Sequence record: MH992122.1
Origin: Escherichia phage OLB35
DNA: 64,000 nt
Direction: 5' to 3' (one strand)
Below, in pieces: positions 6,811 through 61,905 of the stretch (within the stretch, counting starts at the first letter, position 1; every line of letters starts with the position of its first letter). The notes below the pieces were generated by a model. It saw nothing but the letters and a program-made list of their open reading frames with translations, searched no databases and was not told the DNA's origin. A program made the translations under genes and the position numbers.

Positions 6811-6838
6811 AATATTCTCCTCTTGTTTTGATAGGTCT

Positions 6839-6868
6839 ATAGTATCATAGACCATAGTTGTTGTACAT
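6839..6868 (-). promoter_or_regulatory. T4-type early promoter (-35 TGTACA / -10 TACTAT)
   Basis: motif gataggtctatagtatca shared with other early promoters in the window. Confidence 0.4.
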
Positions 6869-7392
6869 CATTTTAGCAAAATAAAATCAACTTGTTCTGC
6901 CAATGAACGTCTAAACATTAATTGACAACTTCCGAGGATGAAATCAGGTGCTTCATAGACCGCGATGTAGTATCCTTTAGCTTTCAAGAGTTCAACATCC
7001 ACCTGGTCATCAAACCATGCATAAACCGCGTCAACGCTTTCAAATCCAAAATAGAACCCTTGAGCCCAATCTTCACTCAATTCAAATGTGTACTCAATTC
7101 TACGGTATCTTAAGATATTTTGTTCAAGAAGTTTGTCTTCATTTACTGTAGGACGATTAGGGACATTATAGTTGTCGCCGTGATGGTAGAAGTTACCTGA
7201 GATTATTCCATGTTTATCAAGGAACTCCCATGTTTCTTCAGAGTTGTCAGTGCCAGACCAACCGTAAGGTGAGCGTGGTTCTTTATTCCAAGAGGTTTCC
7301 CAAATTCTGACGGCTTTACCGTCTTCGATAGCAATTCCTGGTAATGATTCACGTTGAGTACAAAAACTACGTTCTACGCGGTAAACTAACAT
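6868..7392 (-). CDS. hypothetical protein
   Basis: 174-aa ORF; ATG at 7390-7392 with AGGAG RBS inside hairpin arm. Confidence 0.55.
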   Translation of the reverse strand: MLVYRVERSFCTQRESLPGIAIEDGKAVRIWETSWNKEPRSPYGWSGTDNSEETWEFLDKHGIISGNFYHHGDNYNVPNRPTVNEDKLLEQNILRYRRIEYTFELSEDWAQGFYFGFESVDAVYAWFDDQVDVELLKAKGYYIAVYEAPDFILGSCQLMFRRSLAEQVDFILLK

Positions 7393-7396
7393 ATTA

Positions 7397-7447
7397 TTCT
7401 CCTCTGGTTGATATGGTTATAATATCAAAACCAGAGGAGAAGTAAAC
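7397..7447 (-). promoter_or_regulatory. early promoter embedded in RBS-sequestering stem-loop (PeSL-like cassette)
   Basis: -35 GTTTAC (7442-7447), 17-bp spacer, -10 TATTAT (7419-7424); inverted repeat ttctcctctggtt (7397-7409)/aaccagaggagaa (7429-7441) contains the SD. Confidence 0.5.
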
Positions 7448-7451
7448 AACT

Positions 7452-7871
7452 TTATGCGAAAGCAGCCGGGCTATATTTTTTAATTTGGAATTCAGGAACT
7501 ACCATGAACTGTCCAGCGAAAACGATGTTATAAAGCTTAACACCATCTTCTACCCAACGGTCGCTAATAAAACCAGCAATTTGCTTAGTTTTCCATGGCG
7601 TTCCATCAGTTGCCGCAGCAATAGTGAATTCATGGTCTTTTTCAACAGAAACTGATCTGCATAGTCCCCATTTGAACGCTTTTTCTTCCGGTTCAATGAA
7701 TTGGCCTGAGACATAGCCAATGTTACCATCGGCGTCACGAACTTTAACTTCATTACGTCCAAAAACCGGATCGCTCACAGAAAGAACTTCAACCAACTTA
7801 CCAGCAACTTTAGAGCGAGAAGCATCTGATACGTGTACATAATCACCAATAGAGAGATTTGCAATATTCAT
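7452..7871 (-). CDS. hypothetical protein, paralog family member 1
   Basis: 139-aa ORF; C-terminal ...WVEDGVKLYNIVFAGQF.VVP shared with two neighbouring ORFs. Confidence 0.6.
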   Translation of the reverse strand: MNIANLSIGDYVHVSDASRSKVAGKLVEVLSVSDPVFGRNEVKVRDADGNIGYVSGQFIEPEEKAFKWGLCRSVSVEKDHEFTIAAATDGTPWKTKQIAGFISDRWVEDGVKLYNIVFAGQFMVVPEFQIKKYSPAAFA

Positions 7872-8954: not shown

Positions 8955-8984
8955 ATTATACTCCAACCATCCTTGGTTGTAAAC
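8955..8984 (-). promoter_or_regulatory. T4-type early promoter
   Basis: -35 GTTTAC (8979-8984), spacer aaccaaggatggttggag, -10 TATAAT (8955-8960); same sequence recurs at 50869 and 51889. Confidence 0.5.
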
Positions 8985-12098: not shown

Positions 12099-12127
12099 AT
12101 AATATCATGCCCTCAGGTAGTGTACAC
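12099..12127 (-). promoter_or_regulatory. T4-type early promoter
   Basis: -35 GTGTAC (12122-12127), 17-bp spacer, -10 TATTAT (12099-12104), motif gataggtctataat. Confidence 0.45.
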
Positions 12128-15257: not shown

Positions 15258-15380
15258 AATTAACTCCTTTGTTGTTTAATTACAGGTGTATTTATAACTT
15301 AATTAGTAACCATTATCCTGACGTTCAAAGTTGTGTTGGTTTTTCAAGTAGTAAAGTTTAAAGATTTCTTCAGCAGAAAG
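15238..15380. repeat. direct repeat copy A (gene 56 3' end + late promoter + first soc codons)
   Basis: about 143 bp, roughly 95% identical to 15579-15724. Confidence 0.85.
15289..15296 (-). promoter_or_regulatory. late promoter TATAAATA for soc
   Basis: plus-strand tatttata at 15289-15296, about 30 nt upstream of soc ATG. Confidence 0.6.
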
Positions 15381-15598
15381 AGGAGTATTAAATTTCCAGT
15401 GGAGTCTAGTATTATATCCATCAGAGCCGAATGCTTTATTAGCCGGTCTCCCGGCTTTTGCCATGCATAAAAATCAAGTTTCATTTGCAACCCAATCAAC
15501 CATATGTAGATGGTCTGATAATTGACTAACATGCTGAAGCTGATTAGACAGGAGTTTACAAATAAGCTCACTGTTATCATGTTTACATAACCACCCAA
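15344..15598 (-). other. chimeric ORF starting with duplicated soc start (MGGYVN) and reading into the inter-repeat insert
   Basis: 84-aa ORF driven by the duplicated late promoter/RBS; coding status uncertain. Confidence 0.3.
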
Positions 15599-15724
15599 AT
15601 AATCGTAACTCCTTGTTGTTTAATTACAGGTGTATTTATAACTTAATTAGTAACCATTATCCTGACGTTCAAAGTTGTGTTGGTTTTTCAAGTAGTAAAG
15701 TTTAAAGATTTCTTCAGCAGAAAG
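15579..15724. repeat. direct repeat copy B (contains the genuine gene 56 3' end)
   Basis: second copy; carries tatttata at 15633-15640 and an MGGYVN start at 15596-15598. Confidence 0.85.
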
Positions 15725-16168
15725 ACCAAGACCTTGGAACATATTTAGAACGAAATGCAGAATATCAATCATTTCAAATTTAATTTCAAGCTGGTCTTCA
15801 GGAGACAGTTCATCGATACGACGATTTCGATATTCAGCGTGTTGTGCTTTCCATGGCTTCCATACACTGCTAGCGGCTTTTTCACCATTGCTCATACCAC
15901 CAAGTGAAGTCAGCAGTTCACGGAATTCATCATCAATATAATCTTTCTGATTACGCAGCCAATCAACAACATCACCAGCAGTAGCCAATTCATCAGGATG
16001 TTTGTTATGTTCAGGCTTGTCATTTGCCAGACGAACCTGTAAAGATTTCTGCATATCAAGCATTACCTGCAGTGGGTCTTTATCTTCGTGAATCAGAGCA
16101 TTAAAATAAGCTTCTTCTGCTTTATCAACACCAGAAATAAGTTGTGAACATTCATTAAAGTGCGCCAT
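15647..16168 (-). CDS. 56: dCTP pyrophosphatase gp56
   Basis: ORF 15647-16183 trimmed to ATG at 16166-16168 (MAHFNEC...), matches T4 gp56 MazG-like dCTPase. Confidence 0.88.
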   Translation of the reverse strand: MAHFNECSQLISGVDKAEEAYFNALIHEDKDPLQVMLDMQKSLQVRLANDKPEHNKHPDELATAGDVVDWLRNQKDYIDDEFRELLTSLGGMSNGEKAASSVWKPWKAQHAEYRNRRIDELSPEDQLEIKFEMIDILHFVLNMFQGLGLSAEEIFKLYYLKNQHNFERQDNGY

Positions 16169-19920: not shown

Positions 19921-20034
19921 ACACAGTATGTGGGGCTTGTAAACAGTTATTTTAAAATTATCGAAAATCTGCTTCGAAAACTTTCTCGTCATTAACAAAT
20001 GCTTTAACTAATGCTTTGTTCACTTCAGCAAGAT
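19921..20034. repeat. direct repeat copy 1 (orphan dmd 3' end + early promoter)
   Basis: about 114 bp, near-identical to 20069-20185; contains GTTTAC early-promoter -35. Confidence 0.85.
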
Positions 20035-20068: not shown

Positions 20069-20185
20069 ACACAGTAGTATGTGGGGCTTGTAAACAGTTA
20101 TTTTAAAATTATCGAAAATCTGCTTCGAAAACTTTCTCGTCATTAACAAATGCTTTAACTAATGCTTTGTTCACTTCAGCAAGAT
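20069..20185. repeat. direct repeat copy 2 (genuine dmd 3' end + early promoter)
   Basis: second copy, separated from copy 1 by a 34-bp unique spacer. Confidence 0.85.
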
Positions 20186-20304: not shown

Positions 20305-20622
20305 TTAGATTTCCTCGCAAAATGCCCATTCAGCGTGATAAACTGTAGCACCTTTAGTATTATTCATTTGAACTACATCTACCGGAGAAATTACTCGATA
20401 GAGACGTGGTTCACCTCCATAAGAGCGTGCTGCTCGTCCTGCATAAATCTTTGCTAAACCGATATCTTCAGTAAAGAATACACGATCCAAGTTTTTCTTA
20501 CGTCCAGTTTCAGACAGAACTCCTGTTTCTTCAGGAGGACAAAGCATGTTTTCGATGTTAGCTGAACTACTTGAACCGTGATAAAAAATCTTAAATTTTG
20601 CTTTACAATCGATGGTTTTCAT
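20305..20622 (-). CDS. hypothetical protein
   Basis: 105-aa ORF with ATG; early promoter and hairpin upstream. Confidence 0.5.
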   Translation of the reverse strand: MKTIDCKAKFKIFYHGSSSSANIENMLCPPEETGVLSETGRKKNLDRVFFTEDIGLAKIYAGRAARSYGGEPRLYRVISPVDVVQMNNTKGATVYHAEWAFCEEI

Positions 20623-20648
20623 TTTGTTCTCCAGTAGTTGATAGGTCT

Positions 20649-20677
20649 ATAATAACACAACTACTGGAGAAGTAAAC
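20649..20677 (-). promoter_or_regulatory. early promoter within RBS-sequestering hairpin (PeSL-like)
   Basis: -35 GTTTAC (20672-20677), 17-bp spacer, -10 TATTAT (20649-20654); inverted repeat tctccagtagttg (20628-20640)/caactactggaga (20659-20671). Confidence 0.5.
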
Positions 20678-21052: not shown

Positions 21053-21116
21053 AATGTTTTCCTCTTGGTTGGTGTAAGTACATCATATCATGCCTAGAGG
21101 AAGATGTAAACCCCGA

Positions 21117-43871: not shown

Positions 43872-44170
43872 AGTTTAATTTCCTTCGCAATTGAACAGAA
43901 GATACTACGGTCACAAAGCATTTCACCAATTTCTGGATATTTGATTGAACGGTACCAAACATCCAGGCTTGAAACTCTGGTTATCTGTACGGCATTACCG
44001 TTGACAGAATAGTACTGGTCAACCTTAATTTCTTTATCTTCAATTGTCATTTTGTTTTCCTCTATAGCAGATGGTTTAATCTTAACATAACTATCGAGGA
44101 TGTAAACTGTTTTATGAAAATATTTTTGATTTGAGAGGGGCACAAGGAGATAGTGAAGTGAAGATTCCAA
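43868..44170 (-). CDS. hypothetical protein
   Basis: 100-aa ORF. Confidence 0.45.
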   Translation of the reverse strand: MESSLHYLLVPLSNQKYFHKTVYILDSYVKIKPSAIEENKMTIEDKEIKVDQYYSVNGNAVQITRVSSLDVWYRSIKYPEIGEMLCDRSIFCSIAKEIKL

Positions 44171-57363: not shown

Positions 57364-57708
57364 ATTATTCACCAATTAAAGTTTCAACAAAATTCACCAA
57401 ATCATTCAGACAAGCATCAACCTGTTTTTCATAAAAGTCTTCGTTATCATTTACTGCATGATAAGCTACATCATTCAAATCTGAATCGGCTTCACGTAAG
57501 TTACGGATAAGTTCCATCAATTTATTAGCTTGTTCACGGGTCATTTTACCATACTCGTTTCAATAAGATTCACTATGCCGTTTACCATGTTATAAGTAAA
57601 CATCGGATAATTGTATTGTACTACAACATAAGCGATAAGCAAAAGTTTCATTTTGTTCTCCGTTCGTTTTGGTAGGACTACTATAACATAATCCTACCAA
57701 GATGTAAA

Positions 57709-57945
57709 CTACCGATTGTGTTTTAAATGTTGATAAAGTTCTTCAACTTGTTTAGGGTCCAAAACAATTAGGTCATTTTCTTGACGAAGATAAATCCATC
57801 CCTTATCACCAGGTCCATTTTTACAAAACATCACCGTCGTCATATCATCATCTTCAGCGCTTTCAGGTAAAAGTTCAAGTACACCGTCTTCAGATTTTCC
57901 AGTATAATCGTAAAGCATAATATCCTCACATAATCTCGTTAACAT
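57709..57945 (-). CDS. hypothetical protein
   Basis: 78-aa acidic ORF. Confidence 0.45.
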   Translation of the reverse strand: MLTRLCEDIMLYDYTGKSEDGVLELLPESAEDDDMTTVMFCKNGPGDKGWIYLRQENDLIVLDPKQVEELYQHLKHNR

Positions 57946-58174
57946 ACATTTGCAATTCGGTGTGGGCGTCGGCCATCTTTTTCATTGCCTTATTGATATC
58001 AATATCGCCATCTTCGCACCCATGAGCATTTTCCCAATCGGATACAGAATTAGCATACTCTTCAATCAAAAACATCAACTTAGAAATCTTTTCTTTACGT
58101 GTCATAACGTTCTCCTCTAGTAAGTAAGGACTACTATAACACAACCTGAGGAGAAGTAAACTGATAATATCCAA
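57926..58174 (-). CDS. hypothetical protein
   Basis: 82-aa ORF. Confidence 0.45.
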   Translation of the reverse strand: MDIISLLLLRLCYSSPYLLEENVMTRKEKISKLMFLIEEYANSVSDWENAHGCEDGDIDINKAMKKMADAHTELQMYVNEIM

Positions 58175-61089: not shown

Positions 61090-61548
61090 CTAGATTTTAA
61101 TCACTGCTTTAGAAGCTTTTCCTGGTAGTCGTTTACTGTTAATAATAGCCATTCTACATTGAAGAGTCTTCATTTTGAATGCCGGATTTTCGCGACAAAC
61201 TGTAAGTCCTAACCAAAGATTTCCATCAGTTATTTCTAAACGGCCTGGGCGATATTCGACACCTTCGACAAAATCTTCATCAACATCTGGACGTGCCGGC
61301 ATTGATAAAAATTCTGCAACTTCTTTAACATGATTTTTTACTTTACGAAATAATTCAAAAACGTAATTCTCATCTATTTCTCTCTGGATGGCACGATCTA
61401 AGAGATGTTGAGAATACTTGATATGAAAGCCTGGTAGTCCAAGAGACTTTGCAGCATCTTTTATACCGGCATTGATTTGACGAAACTCCGTTTCAAAGAT
61501 TCGACGGAGTTTATTGCGACGGATAAAAACTTCCGAATTGATAGTCAT
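61090..61548 (-). CDS. regB: RegB site-specific endoribonuclease
   Basis: ORF trimmed to ATG at 61546-61548 (MTINSEVFIRRNKLRR...), matches T4 RegB. Confidence 0.88.
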   Translation of the reverse strand: MTINSEVFIRRNKLRRIFETEFRQINAGIKDAAKSLGLPGFHIKYSQHLLDRAIQREIDENYVFELFRKVKNHVKEVAEFLSMPARPDVDEDFVEGVEYRPGRLEITDGNLWLGLTVCRENPAFKMKTLQCRMAIINSKRLPGKASKAVIKI

Positions 61549-61556
61549 TTTTATTT

Positions 61557-61605
61557 CTCCTCTAGTTGACAGGTCTATAGTAACACAACTAGAGGAGAAG
61601 TAAAC
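61557..61605 (-). promoter_or_regulatory. early promoter within RBS-sequestering hairpin upstream of regB
   Basis: -35 GTTTAC (61600-61605), 17-bp spacer, -10 TACTAT (61577-61582); inverted repeat ctcctctagttg (61557-61568)/caactagaggag (61586-61597) contains the SD. Confidence 0.5.
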
Positions 61606-61628
61606 CACTTTTTGATAGGAATTAACTT

Positions 61629-61905
61629 TTAAACTGCTTTAGATACTTCGTCACGAACCTGGTGGAAGTTCTTGAGCTGTTCAAGGCGTTGTTCGTAATA
61701 CGCAATCTCATCTTCTTCAAGACAATCGTCAGCGTCTTCTTTCAGATATGCCTTGTACTCATTAAAGAGGGCCCATAGGCGGTTCTCAAAGTCATCAAGG
61801 CTTTGAATTTTCTTGTGCTTAGGAACAAGGCTAAAAGGATTGCTTTCAGTTATGCTTGTGACCTTTTCTTATGAGTTCCAAATACCCAGTAATAGTAGAA
61901 GCCAT
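61629..61905 (-). CDS. hypothetical protein, frame-broken at a homopolymer (absent from the ORF track)
   Basis: ATG 61903-61905 overlaps upstream stop (TAATG); after about 14 codons a T4 run (61864-61867) shifts the frame; the other frame reads ...[57 protein letters not shown] to TAA at 61629-61631. Confidence 0.35.

Follow-up and report, generated by a model that had tools for sequence, protein, structure and literature searches.

Early promoters within Shine-Dalgarno-pairing hairpins in Escherichia phage OLB35

Two described systems come close to the element treated here, a cassette that recurs in the DNA of Escherichia phage OLB35 (sequence record MH992122.1; the whole 64,000-nucleotide stretch analysed is called the window) and that places an early promoter within an inverted repeat whose 3′ arm contains the Shine-Dalgarno (SD) sequence of the next gene. 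PeSL cassettes, each an early promoter plus a stem-loop, have been read as terminators or attenuators and as recombination linkers (Arbiol et al. 2010, PMC2839356; Comeau et al. 2014, PMC4122927). In the other system, known from T4 e, soc, 49, I-TevI and segB and from Aeh1 mobE, a promoter lies inside a helix that hides the SD or AUG (PMC3014915 section 29; PMC2988022). The gating logic has been shown experimentally for T4 e, and a comparable hairpin cuts lysozyme synthesis 100-fold (PMC3014915 section 29).

With PeSLs the OLB35 cassettes share the dispersed, repeated occurrence of a ~50-60-nt element before small early open reading frames (ORFs), made up of AT-rich DNA, a −35, a spacer of about 17 nt, a −10 (sigma-70-like), a stem-loop, the SD and the start codon, and these are the structural features by which a PeSL is recognized. 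The promoters of the three clearest copies, S1-S3, fit the PST/T4 consensus TTTACW-N17-TAYWAT, and a stem with the −10 in its loop corresponds to the subclass of RB49 and phi1 stems ‘overlapping the −10 box’ (PMC2839356). The PeSL papers, however, treat the stem only as terminator or attenuator and linker (the words ‘translation’ and ‘ribosome’ are absent from Arbiol 2010, PMC2839356), and PST/T4 stems are described just upstream of the promoter, whereas in OLB35 the SD itself serves as the 3′ arm, the stem has no U-tract after it and translation is what the stem is predicted to affect.

With the T4 gating family the cassettes share a long RNA that would hide the SD or AUG and an internal-promoter RNA that would lack the 5′ strand, both of which are predictions here. 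The internal promoter is late (gp55, TATAAATA) in the T4 cases reviewed, but it is a sigma-70 early promoter here and its spacer forms the 5′ arm; the late promoter TATAAATA was not found in the loops of S1-S3. Because the internal promoter is early instead of late, the temporal logic would be reversed, with expression only while the early promoter fires. By analogy, then, the cassettes would work like the gating family, although they lack its late promoter and so are strictly not members. They appear to combine known PeSL elements with known promoter-in-hairpin gating, the early promoter being the new part. A keyword search of the accessible literature found neither an early promoter in an SD-sequestering hairpin nor such a structure at regB; a prior mention may exist.

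Three cassettes and their predicted folds

Coordinates and gene order identify the window as the opening 64 kb of a Mosigvirus-type genome, and it is 95.8% identical to RB69 when aligned to it. A 3-kb stretch around the cassette S1 is 98.3% identical to Shigella phage Shf125875 (Mosigvirus, RB69-like, T4 family). Early genes are on the minus strand, where all of the cassettes read and where we count 24 early-promoter candidates. The layout at S1-S3 is GTTTAC, a 17-nt spacer that opens with the 5′ arm, TGn and the −10, about 8 nt, the 3′ arm with GGAG, 4-6 nt and ATG.

Site S1
7442..7447, minus strand: −35 GTTTAC; the stop codon of the upstream ORF (7452-7454) is 4 nt off
7429..7441, minus strand: 5′ arm UUCUCCUCUGGUU, the first 13 nt of the promoter spacer, contained only in RNA started upstream
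7419..7424, minus strand: −10 TATTAT within the hairpin loop, with TGA just upstream (extended −10)
7397..7409, minus strand: 3′ arm AACCAGAGGAGAA, with SD GGAG at 7399-7402; start codon at 7390-7392
6868..7392, minus strand: motB.2-like gene, 174 aa (phrog_1106)

Site S2
20627..20677, minus strand: cassette; −35 at 20672-20677, adjoined by the stop codon of the upstream ORF
20658-20671 and 20627-20640, minus strand: 5′ arm UUCUCCAGUAGUUG and 3′ arm CAACUACUGGAGAA
20649-20654, minus strand: −10 TATTAT; ATG at 20620-20622
20305..20622, minus strand: RB69ORF040c-like gene, 105 aa (phrog_2110)

Site S3
61555..61605, minus strand: cassette; −35 at 61600-61605, ATG at 61546-61548
61586-61599 and 61555-61568, minus strand: 5′ arm UUCUCCUCUAGUUG and 3′ arm CAACUAGAGGAGAA
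61577-61582, minus strand: −10 TACTAT
61090..61548, minus strand: regB endoribonuclease gene, 152 aa (phrog_1323, E = 2e-75), syntenic with RB69 regB

A sequence-only reading of this DNA had described three perfect inverted repeats of 12-13 bp with the SD in the 3′ arm and the −10 in the loop. A repeat search recovers all three and their perfect pairing, with arms of 13, 14 and 14 bp: the S1 arms are 100% complementary over 13 nt with 19 nt between them, and the perfect 14-bp repeats of S2 and S3 stand within 19-nt repeats at 89% and 95%, respectively. Loops of the three stems are 17-19 nt. The promoter had been given as GTTTAC-N17-TATTAT throughout, which is right for S1 and S2 and wrong for the −10 of S3. 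Its orthologue in T4 is the regB early promoter (described in PMC3014915), so far as the S3 promoter is concerned.

RNA folding was predicted for two forms of each transcript, a read-through form that starts upstream of the −35 and ends shortly after the ATG, and a promoter-proximal form from 7 nt after the −10. The proposal that read-through RNA hides the SD and that RNA from the embedded promoter exposes it was borne out in these predictions. The probability that the SD is unpaired was 0.00-0.03 in the read-through form and 0.36-0.76 in the proximal form (S1, 0.000 and 0.52; S2, 0.03 and 0.76; S3, 0.000 and 0.36). The predicted hairpins have free energies of −20.9 to −23.7 kcal/mol. The 86-88-nt read-through segments fold at −23.6 to −26.6 kcal/mol (z = −4.5 to −5.0), with none of 200 shuffles as stable, and the short promoter-proximal forms fold at 0 to −1 kcal/mol, that is, unstructured. 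T4 has SD-occluding stems of the same kind at denV, nrdC.8, alc, alt.-3 and an ORF of the ndd region, with predicted probabilities of an unpaired SD of at most 0.001 in read-through against 0.54-0.88 in proximal RNA. Apart from two promoters treated further below (S4 and the one at 44107), the other early promoters of the window show little or no contrast between the forms.

Covariation, orthologues and terminators

Pairing between spacer and 5′ untranslated region (UTR) exceeds chance. A helix score of at least 13 is reached by 6 of 21 window promoters, where shuffled spacers average 0.28 with a maximum of 3, and by 12 of 30 T4 promoters against 1.6% of non-cognate spacer/UTR pairs. We scanned IMG/VR for GTTTACTTCTCC-N30-42-GGAGAA, a pattern in which nothing but the −35 and the helix’s outer 6 bp is fixed. 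Among 24 distinct matches in promoter-plus-ATG context, 10 add at least five Watson-Crick pairs to the helix, and their inner arms comprise seven different sequences, each fully compensated; outside that context none of 11 matches extends the helix by more than two pairs.

Covariation was counted in an ungapped, anchor-registered alignment of 17 distinct cassettes, a whole-cassette MAFFT alignment having put the arms out of register. The sample is free of circularity, because selection used only GTTTACTTCTCC...GGAGAA. All eight free inner pairs show double changes, in 35 cells compared with 15.8 ± 2.9 after shuffling (a value reached in 0 of 500 shuffles); for the covariation score the figures are 0.28 observed, 0.09 in shuffles (0 of 500) and 0.04-0.11 in slid registers. 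As read from these sequences, the helix is under selection and is kept by compensatory change. The strand on which it acts was addressed with stems detected under equal penalties for G·U and A·C: of the transition mismatches inside the stems, as read on the sense strand, 20 are G·U and 5 are A·C, an excess that points to a sense-strand RNA helix rather than a DNA cruciform or an antisense RNA. Structure, stability, restriction to the read-through form and compensatory evolution are strongly supported by computation.

Of the 145 phage records that match the S1 cassette, 141 carry it at 95-100% identity. Over longer distances, regB promoters of several T4-like lineages keep an SD-occluding helix with differing sequences, as motB.2 and denV orthologues likewise do across lineages. 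The regB arms (5′/3′; L numbers denote loci) are as follows.

This window (S3): UUCUCCUCUAGUUG / CAACUAGAGGAGAA
T4: UUUUCCUCUUGACUG / CAGUUAAGAGGAGAA, 15 bp, for which two G·U pairs are needed
L052: UUUCUCCUCUUUAUG / CAUAAAGAGGAGAAA
L055: UCUCCUGUAAG / CUUACAGGAGA
L056/57: stem GGGCCAU/AUGGCCC around the −10, SD spared
L059: classical terminator upstream, no stem

Intrinsic termination is not what the S1-S3 stems appear built for, though they might attenuate transcription by some other route. Their 3′ flanks (UAAUAUG, CAAAAUG and AUAAAAAUG) are A-rich, with no U-tract after any of the three stems, and a terminator consensus scan called none at or just upstream of these cassettes; with the long loops, this led us to reject intrinsic terminators. 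The UUCG intrinsic terminators found before many T4-family early promoters occupy the same cassette boundary and are apparently the alternative to the embedded hairpin, but their stems are short and G/C-rich, their loops measure 3-8 nt and a U-tract follows, whereas the cassettes have 13-14-bp stems, A/U-rich to mixed, loops of 17-19 nt and A-rich sequence on the 3′ side. Among 155 distinct early promoters surveyed, an upstream intrinsic terminator accompanies 2 of 49 with a strong embedded stem and 24 of 106 without one (Fisher p = 0.0046). The S2-gene orthologues of T4-like phages (L065-L070, L072, L074) have a UUCG-tetraloop terminator upstream and spacer/SD pairing of only 5-6 bp. This near mutual exclusion and these orthologues suggest that embedded hairpin and upstream terminator are alternative ways to insulate a gene from upstream transcription.

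The survey holds 41 distinct strong promoter-embedded stems, 25 that include the SD and 16 that do not. In the SD-including stems the 5′ arm begins 0-1 nt after the −35 in 20 of 25; the end of the 3′ arm is separated from the ATG by 3-8 nt, and loop lengths range over 14-36 nt. The SD-sparing stems, of up to 14 bp, have their 5′ arm in the distal spacer and their 3′ arm right after the −10, in the region of the start site, most with a loop of 8-15 nt that is approximately the extended −10. These stems, too, would be contained only in read-through RNA and are unable to occlude the SD, so the mechanism of the sequence-only reading is not a full account of promoter-embedded hairpins.

Two other candidates were set aside. 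A perfect TATAAT on the plus strand at S1 and S2 might serve an antisense promoter, but the only −35-like sequence is a TTGATA 4 nt off, and none lies at 16-18 nt. We also judged it unlikely that a ribosome terminating at the stop codon upstream couples translation to the next gene; the 5′ arm begins 10 nt (S1) or 6 nt (S2) past that stop, farther than the roughly 5 nt that such a ribosome unwinds.

Proposed mechanism and its alternatives

We propose, at a probability of roughly 55%, that an anti-SD sequence acting in cis from the promoter spacer ties translation of a gene to that gene’s own early promoter. In each cassette, an early promoter of the T4 family and of sigma-70 type would be joined to the region where translation of the following gene is initiated. 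Polymerase arriving from upstream would transcribe both arms; no terminator intervenes, and at S1 and S2 only 0-4 nt separate the −35 from the upstream stop codon. In the read-through RNA a helix of 13-14 bp, which can be lengthened to 18-19 bp, is predicted to cover GGAG and to reach within 3-6 nt of the AUG, so that the gene copy on this RNA would go untranslated and its GGAG would be hidden from the single-strand-specific RegB. RNA from the embedded promoter would start ~7 nt after the −10 and 1-3 nt before the 3′ arm, and would thus lack the 5′ arm and leave the SD free. Translation of regB, motB.2 and ORF040c (in T4, of denV, alc, alt.-3 and nrdC.8) would in this way be tied to their own immediate-early promoters and insulated from upstream early and middle read-through without a terminator. 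The start site within the loop is expected from sigma-70 geometry, the translational block is proposed by analogy with T4 e, and the purpose is our interpretation.

If this is true, T4-type phages use the promoter-in-hairpin in both directions, with a late promoter for late-only and an early promoter for immediate-early-only expression. Potentially harmful early functions (such as the RegB nuclease, the Alc transcription inhibitor and endonuclease V) would be held to a short pulse despite continuing transcription, and the PeSL stem-loops of T-even and RB69-type phages would have a concrete post-transcriptional role. The cassette would be a compact insulator of ~55 nt that separates a gene’s translation from upstream transcription without a terminator, and a possible resistance of read-through RNAs to RegB would have a structural explanation.

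Cleavage by RegB is confined to GGAG in single-stranded RNA with an A-rich tract after it (consensus GGAGRAYARAA), and structure protects from it (Durand et al. 2006, PMC1702504). The regB early promoter is shut off after 2-3 min, and RegB also cuts its own SD (PMC3014915). Like RegB targets, the 3′ arms of S1-S3 carry GGAG and an A-rich tract, with consensus matches of 11/11 at S2 (GGAGAACAAAA) and 10/11 at S1 (GGAGAAUAAUA), and S3 is regB’s own SD; in the accessible literature no structure is described upstream of regB, and read-through and proximal regB RNA are not said to differ in RegB sensitivity. Among SD-occluding cassettes GGAG is not enriched (9 of 13 vs 22 of 40, p = 0.52), and a link specific to RegB was therefore set aside, being kept as a corollary that rests on the literature.

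Several points weigh against the proposal of translational gating. The start site, the level of read-through and the difference in translation at these sites are all things that we infer. With 16 of 41 stems sparing the SD, a function other than SD occlusion must also select hairpins here, and in L056/57 an SD-sparing stem takes the place of the SD-occluding one at regB itself. The long S2 helix is missing from the T4-like orthologues and so appears evolutionarily labile. Strand-biased mutation or fixed motifs (TGn, the start-site CTATC) could explain part of the G·U excess, and the relatedness of many survey sequences makes the p-values optimistic. The RegB corollary is without specific support, since GGAG is not enriched.

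The stems might instead be what was first proposed for PeSLs, terminators or attenuators ahead of a fresh promoter in a cassette that offers a homology patch for shuffling, with the SD pairing incidental, which we consider unlikely. RB49 and phi1 stems between or overlapping −35 and −10 have been described, PeSLs also occur in PST/T4 and nt-1/KVP40, and one RB49-type stem lowered lacZ expression as much as rrnB T1, but the stem tested is of a G/C-rich type unlike these. Such a role would agree with the near mutual exclusion of embedded stems and upstream terminators; the missing U-tract, the A-rich flank, the negative scan and the 17-19-nt loops speak against it, and it leaves unexplained that the 3′ arm is precisely the SD in 25 distinct stems. 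As for shuffling, the sequence-only reading had taken the recurring promoter cores for dispersed homology that could mediate recombination, as the PeSL literature holds, and a D1 cassette family has nine copies in the window (60-82% identity). At ~61618-61858 a segment of 241 nt (vs RB69) or 238 nt (vs L044/45) replaces ~160 nt (162 nt) with a junction ~12 nt upstream of the S3 −35, and L052 and L053 diverge exactly at the regB promoter, yet indel edges relative to RB69 lie within 30 nt of a promoter cassette in only 3 of 18 cases against 1.03 expected (P = 0.07), a weak excess. We regard cassette-mediated recombination as suggestive. The hairpin could also serve RNA stability or processing, shielding an intergenic GGAG from RegB and perhaps acting as a 3′-end barrier that stabilizes upstream messages once they are cleaved, so that long delayed-early or middle transcripts would stay whole, with the translation block a side effect. 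RegB’s single-strand requirement, the consensus matches at S1 and S2, and regB’s own SD as a known RegB cut site in RB69-type phages would all fit, and the SD-sparing class would gain a role. We nonetheless find this quite improbable: besides the lack of GGAG enrichment, 4 of 13 SD-occluding cassettes in T4 and the window have no GGAG, and the GGAG of T4 denV resists RegB for sequence reasons even when unstructured. Such shielding is in any case compatible with translational gating and not exclusive of it.

A role at the DNA level, in which a cruciform or hairpin centred on the −10 modulates melting or shut-off or is a target for recombination or junction enzymes, strikes us as very unlikely. 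The −10 does lie in the loop in both classes, most distinct stems of either class have their centre of symmetry no more than ~3 nt from the hexamer, the loop of the SD-sparing class is just the extended −10 (8-10 nt), and the shut-off mechanism of T4 early promoters is still unexplained. Against this, the 20:5 ratio of G·U to A·C argues that pairing is kept for the RNA of one strand, as do the two G·U pairs without which the 15-bp helix of T4 regB would not form; loops of 17-19 nt make cruciform extrusion costly, and the geometry is accounted for by the spacer being the sole unconstrained non-coding stretch upstream of the start site. Least credible to us is that the repeats have no function and are recent copies of one chance palindrome, or are kept perfect by templated (quasi-palindrome) mutation. 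The unusually perfect stems would fit, as would the TTCTCC...GGAGAA and much of the loop shared by S1-S4 (D1 and D2 families, 66-82% identity), but seven compensated inner arms, distant orthologues that keep the helix with unrelated sequences, the failure of non-cognate spacer/UTR pairs to pair and the conservation of S1 all oppose it.

More tentatively, and with rather more doubt than for translational gating at S1-S3, T4-family early promoters may in general be designed with a spacer complementary to the leader, as the 12 of 30 in T4 and 6 of 21 in the window would allow. The spacer, the only unconstrained stretch of the promoter, would co-evolve with its own leader and put the −10 at a hairpin apex in every read-through RNA. 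Cassette boundaries would then carry a terminator-free insulator at the RNA level in two forms, an anti-SD that silences the next cistron and hides its RegB site or an SD-sparing stem. Such a rule could explain the immediate-early-only translation of some genes and the escape of delayed-early and middle read-through RNAs from RegB.

Further promoters, repeats and junctions

The sequence-only reading had counted ‘at least three’ sites; three stand, and it had overlooked a degenerate fourth copy at 58110-58161 and weaker pairings at 44058-44100 and 21059-21102.

58110..58161, minus strand: S4, degenerate copy; −35 at 58156-58161, −10 TATAGT at 58133-58138, ATG at 58103-58105
58148-58155 and 58110-58117, minus strand: S4 arms, 5′ UUCUCCUC and 3′ GAGGAGAA, an 8-bp helix
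Downstream of S4, minus strand: mobD.2a-like ORF, 59 aa
44058..44107, minus strand: weaker member; −35 at 44102-44107, UCCUCGAUAG (44091-44100) pairs with CUAUAGAGGA (44058-44067) with one mismatch
21059..21111, minus strand: weak member; −35 at 21106-21111, UUCCUCU (21096-21102) pairs with AGAGGAA (21059-21065); UUCG-type terminator upstream

In the folding predictions S4 resembles S1-S3 in SD accessibility (0.01 in read-through, 0.51 in proximal RNA), as does the promoter at 44107 (0.01 and 0.62); the S4 segment folds unexceptionally (z = −1.2), and the 21059-21111 member has no contrast at all, with 0.44 in both forms.

Near-identical promoter cores do recur across the window, as had been proposed, and were located by search. 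A 24-nt core AACCAAGGATGGTTGGAGTATAAT has its −35 at 8984, 50898 and 51917, and the core TATTATAG(G)ACCTATC at 12127, 20677, 53559, 55036 and 55317. The spacer of the AACCAAGGATGGTTGGAGTATAAT cores has a small hairpin of its own, AACCA-AGGA-TGGTT, a third way in which promoter and stem are combined. Rfam gave no family match at the gathering score on either strand of the whole 64-kb window. Hairpins of the SD-sparing class are found at these places.

Window: 57669-57700 (−35 at 57709), 53559, 19203, 42680 and 6834-6853
T4: the ipI, ipII and ipIII promoters (L042) and the dmd promoter (L041)

Some variants fall within the cassettes or beside them. The RB69 copy of S2 (L113) has one 3′-arm substitution, CACCTACTGGAGAA for CAACTACTGGAGAA, through which one of the 14 pairs of the helix becomes a U·C mismatch. 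Upstream of the regB −35 (~1390-1500 in each locus) L052 and L053 are unrelated in sequence, the phages being otherwise similar, and the L053 5′ arm has GG where TT is expected, giving two mismatches; it looks like a recombination joint inside the promoter spacer. The ~61618-61858 segment, directly upstream of the regB promoter, holds only a 32-codon ORF remnant, and its RB69 counterpart is the ORF117c region.

The window also has two pairs of direct repeats that are each 100% identical. One, of 113 nt (15269-15381 and 15613-15725, 344 nt apart), lies in the soc/56 region and coincides with a 276-nt insertion relative to RB69 (window 15296-15573). The other, of 110 nt (19925-20034 and 20076-20185, 151 nt apart), starts at the early promoter 19944 and looks like a tandem duplication with an edge in a promoter cassette; RB69 differs there by indels. 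In the T4 RefSeq record, 14 nt between cd.2 and cd.3 (133300-133313; 14301-14314 of L043) are annotated as the ‘inverted complement’ of the earlier sequence, correcting Pe133295, and this may reflect either an error of sequencing at a promoter hairpin or a true inversion of the loop.

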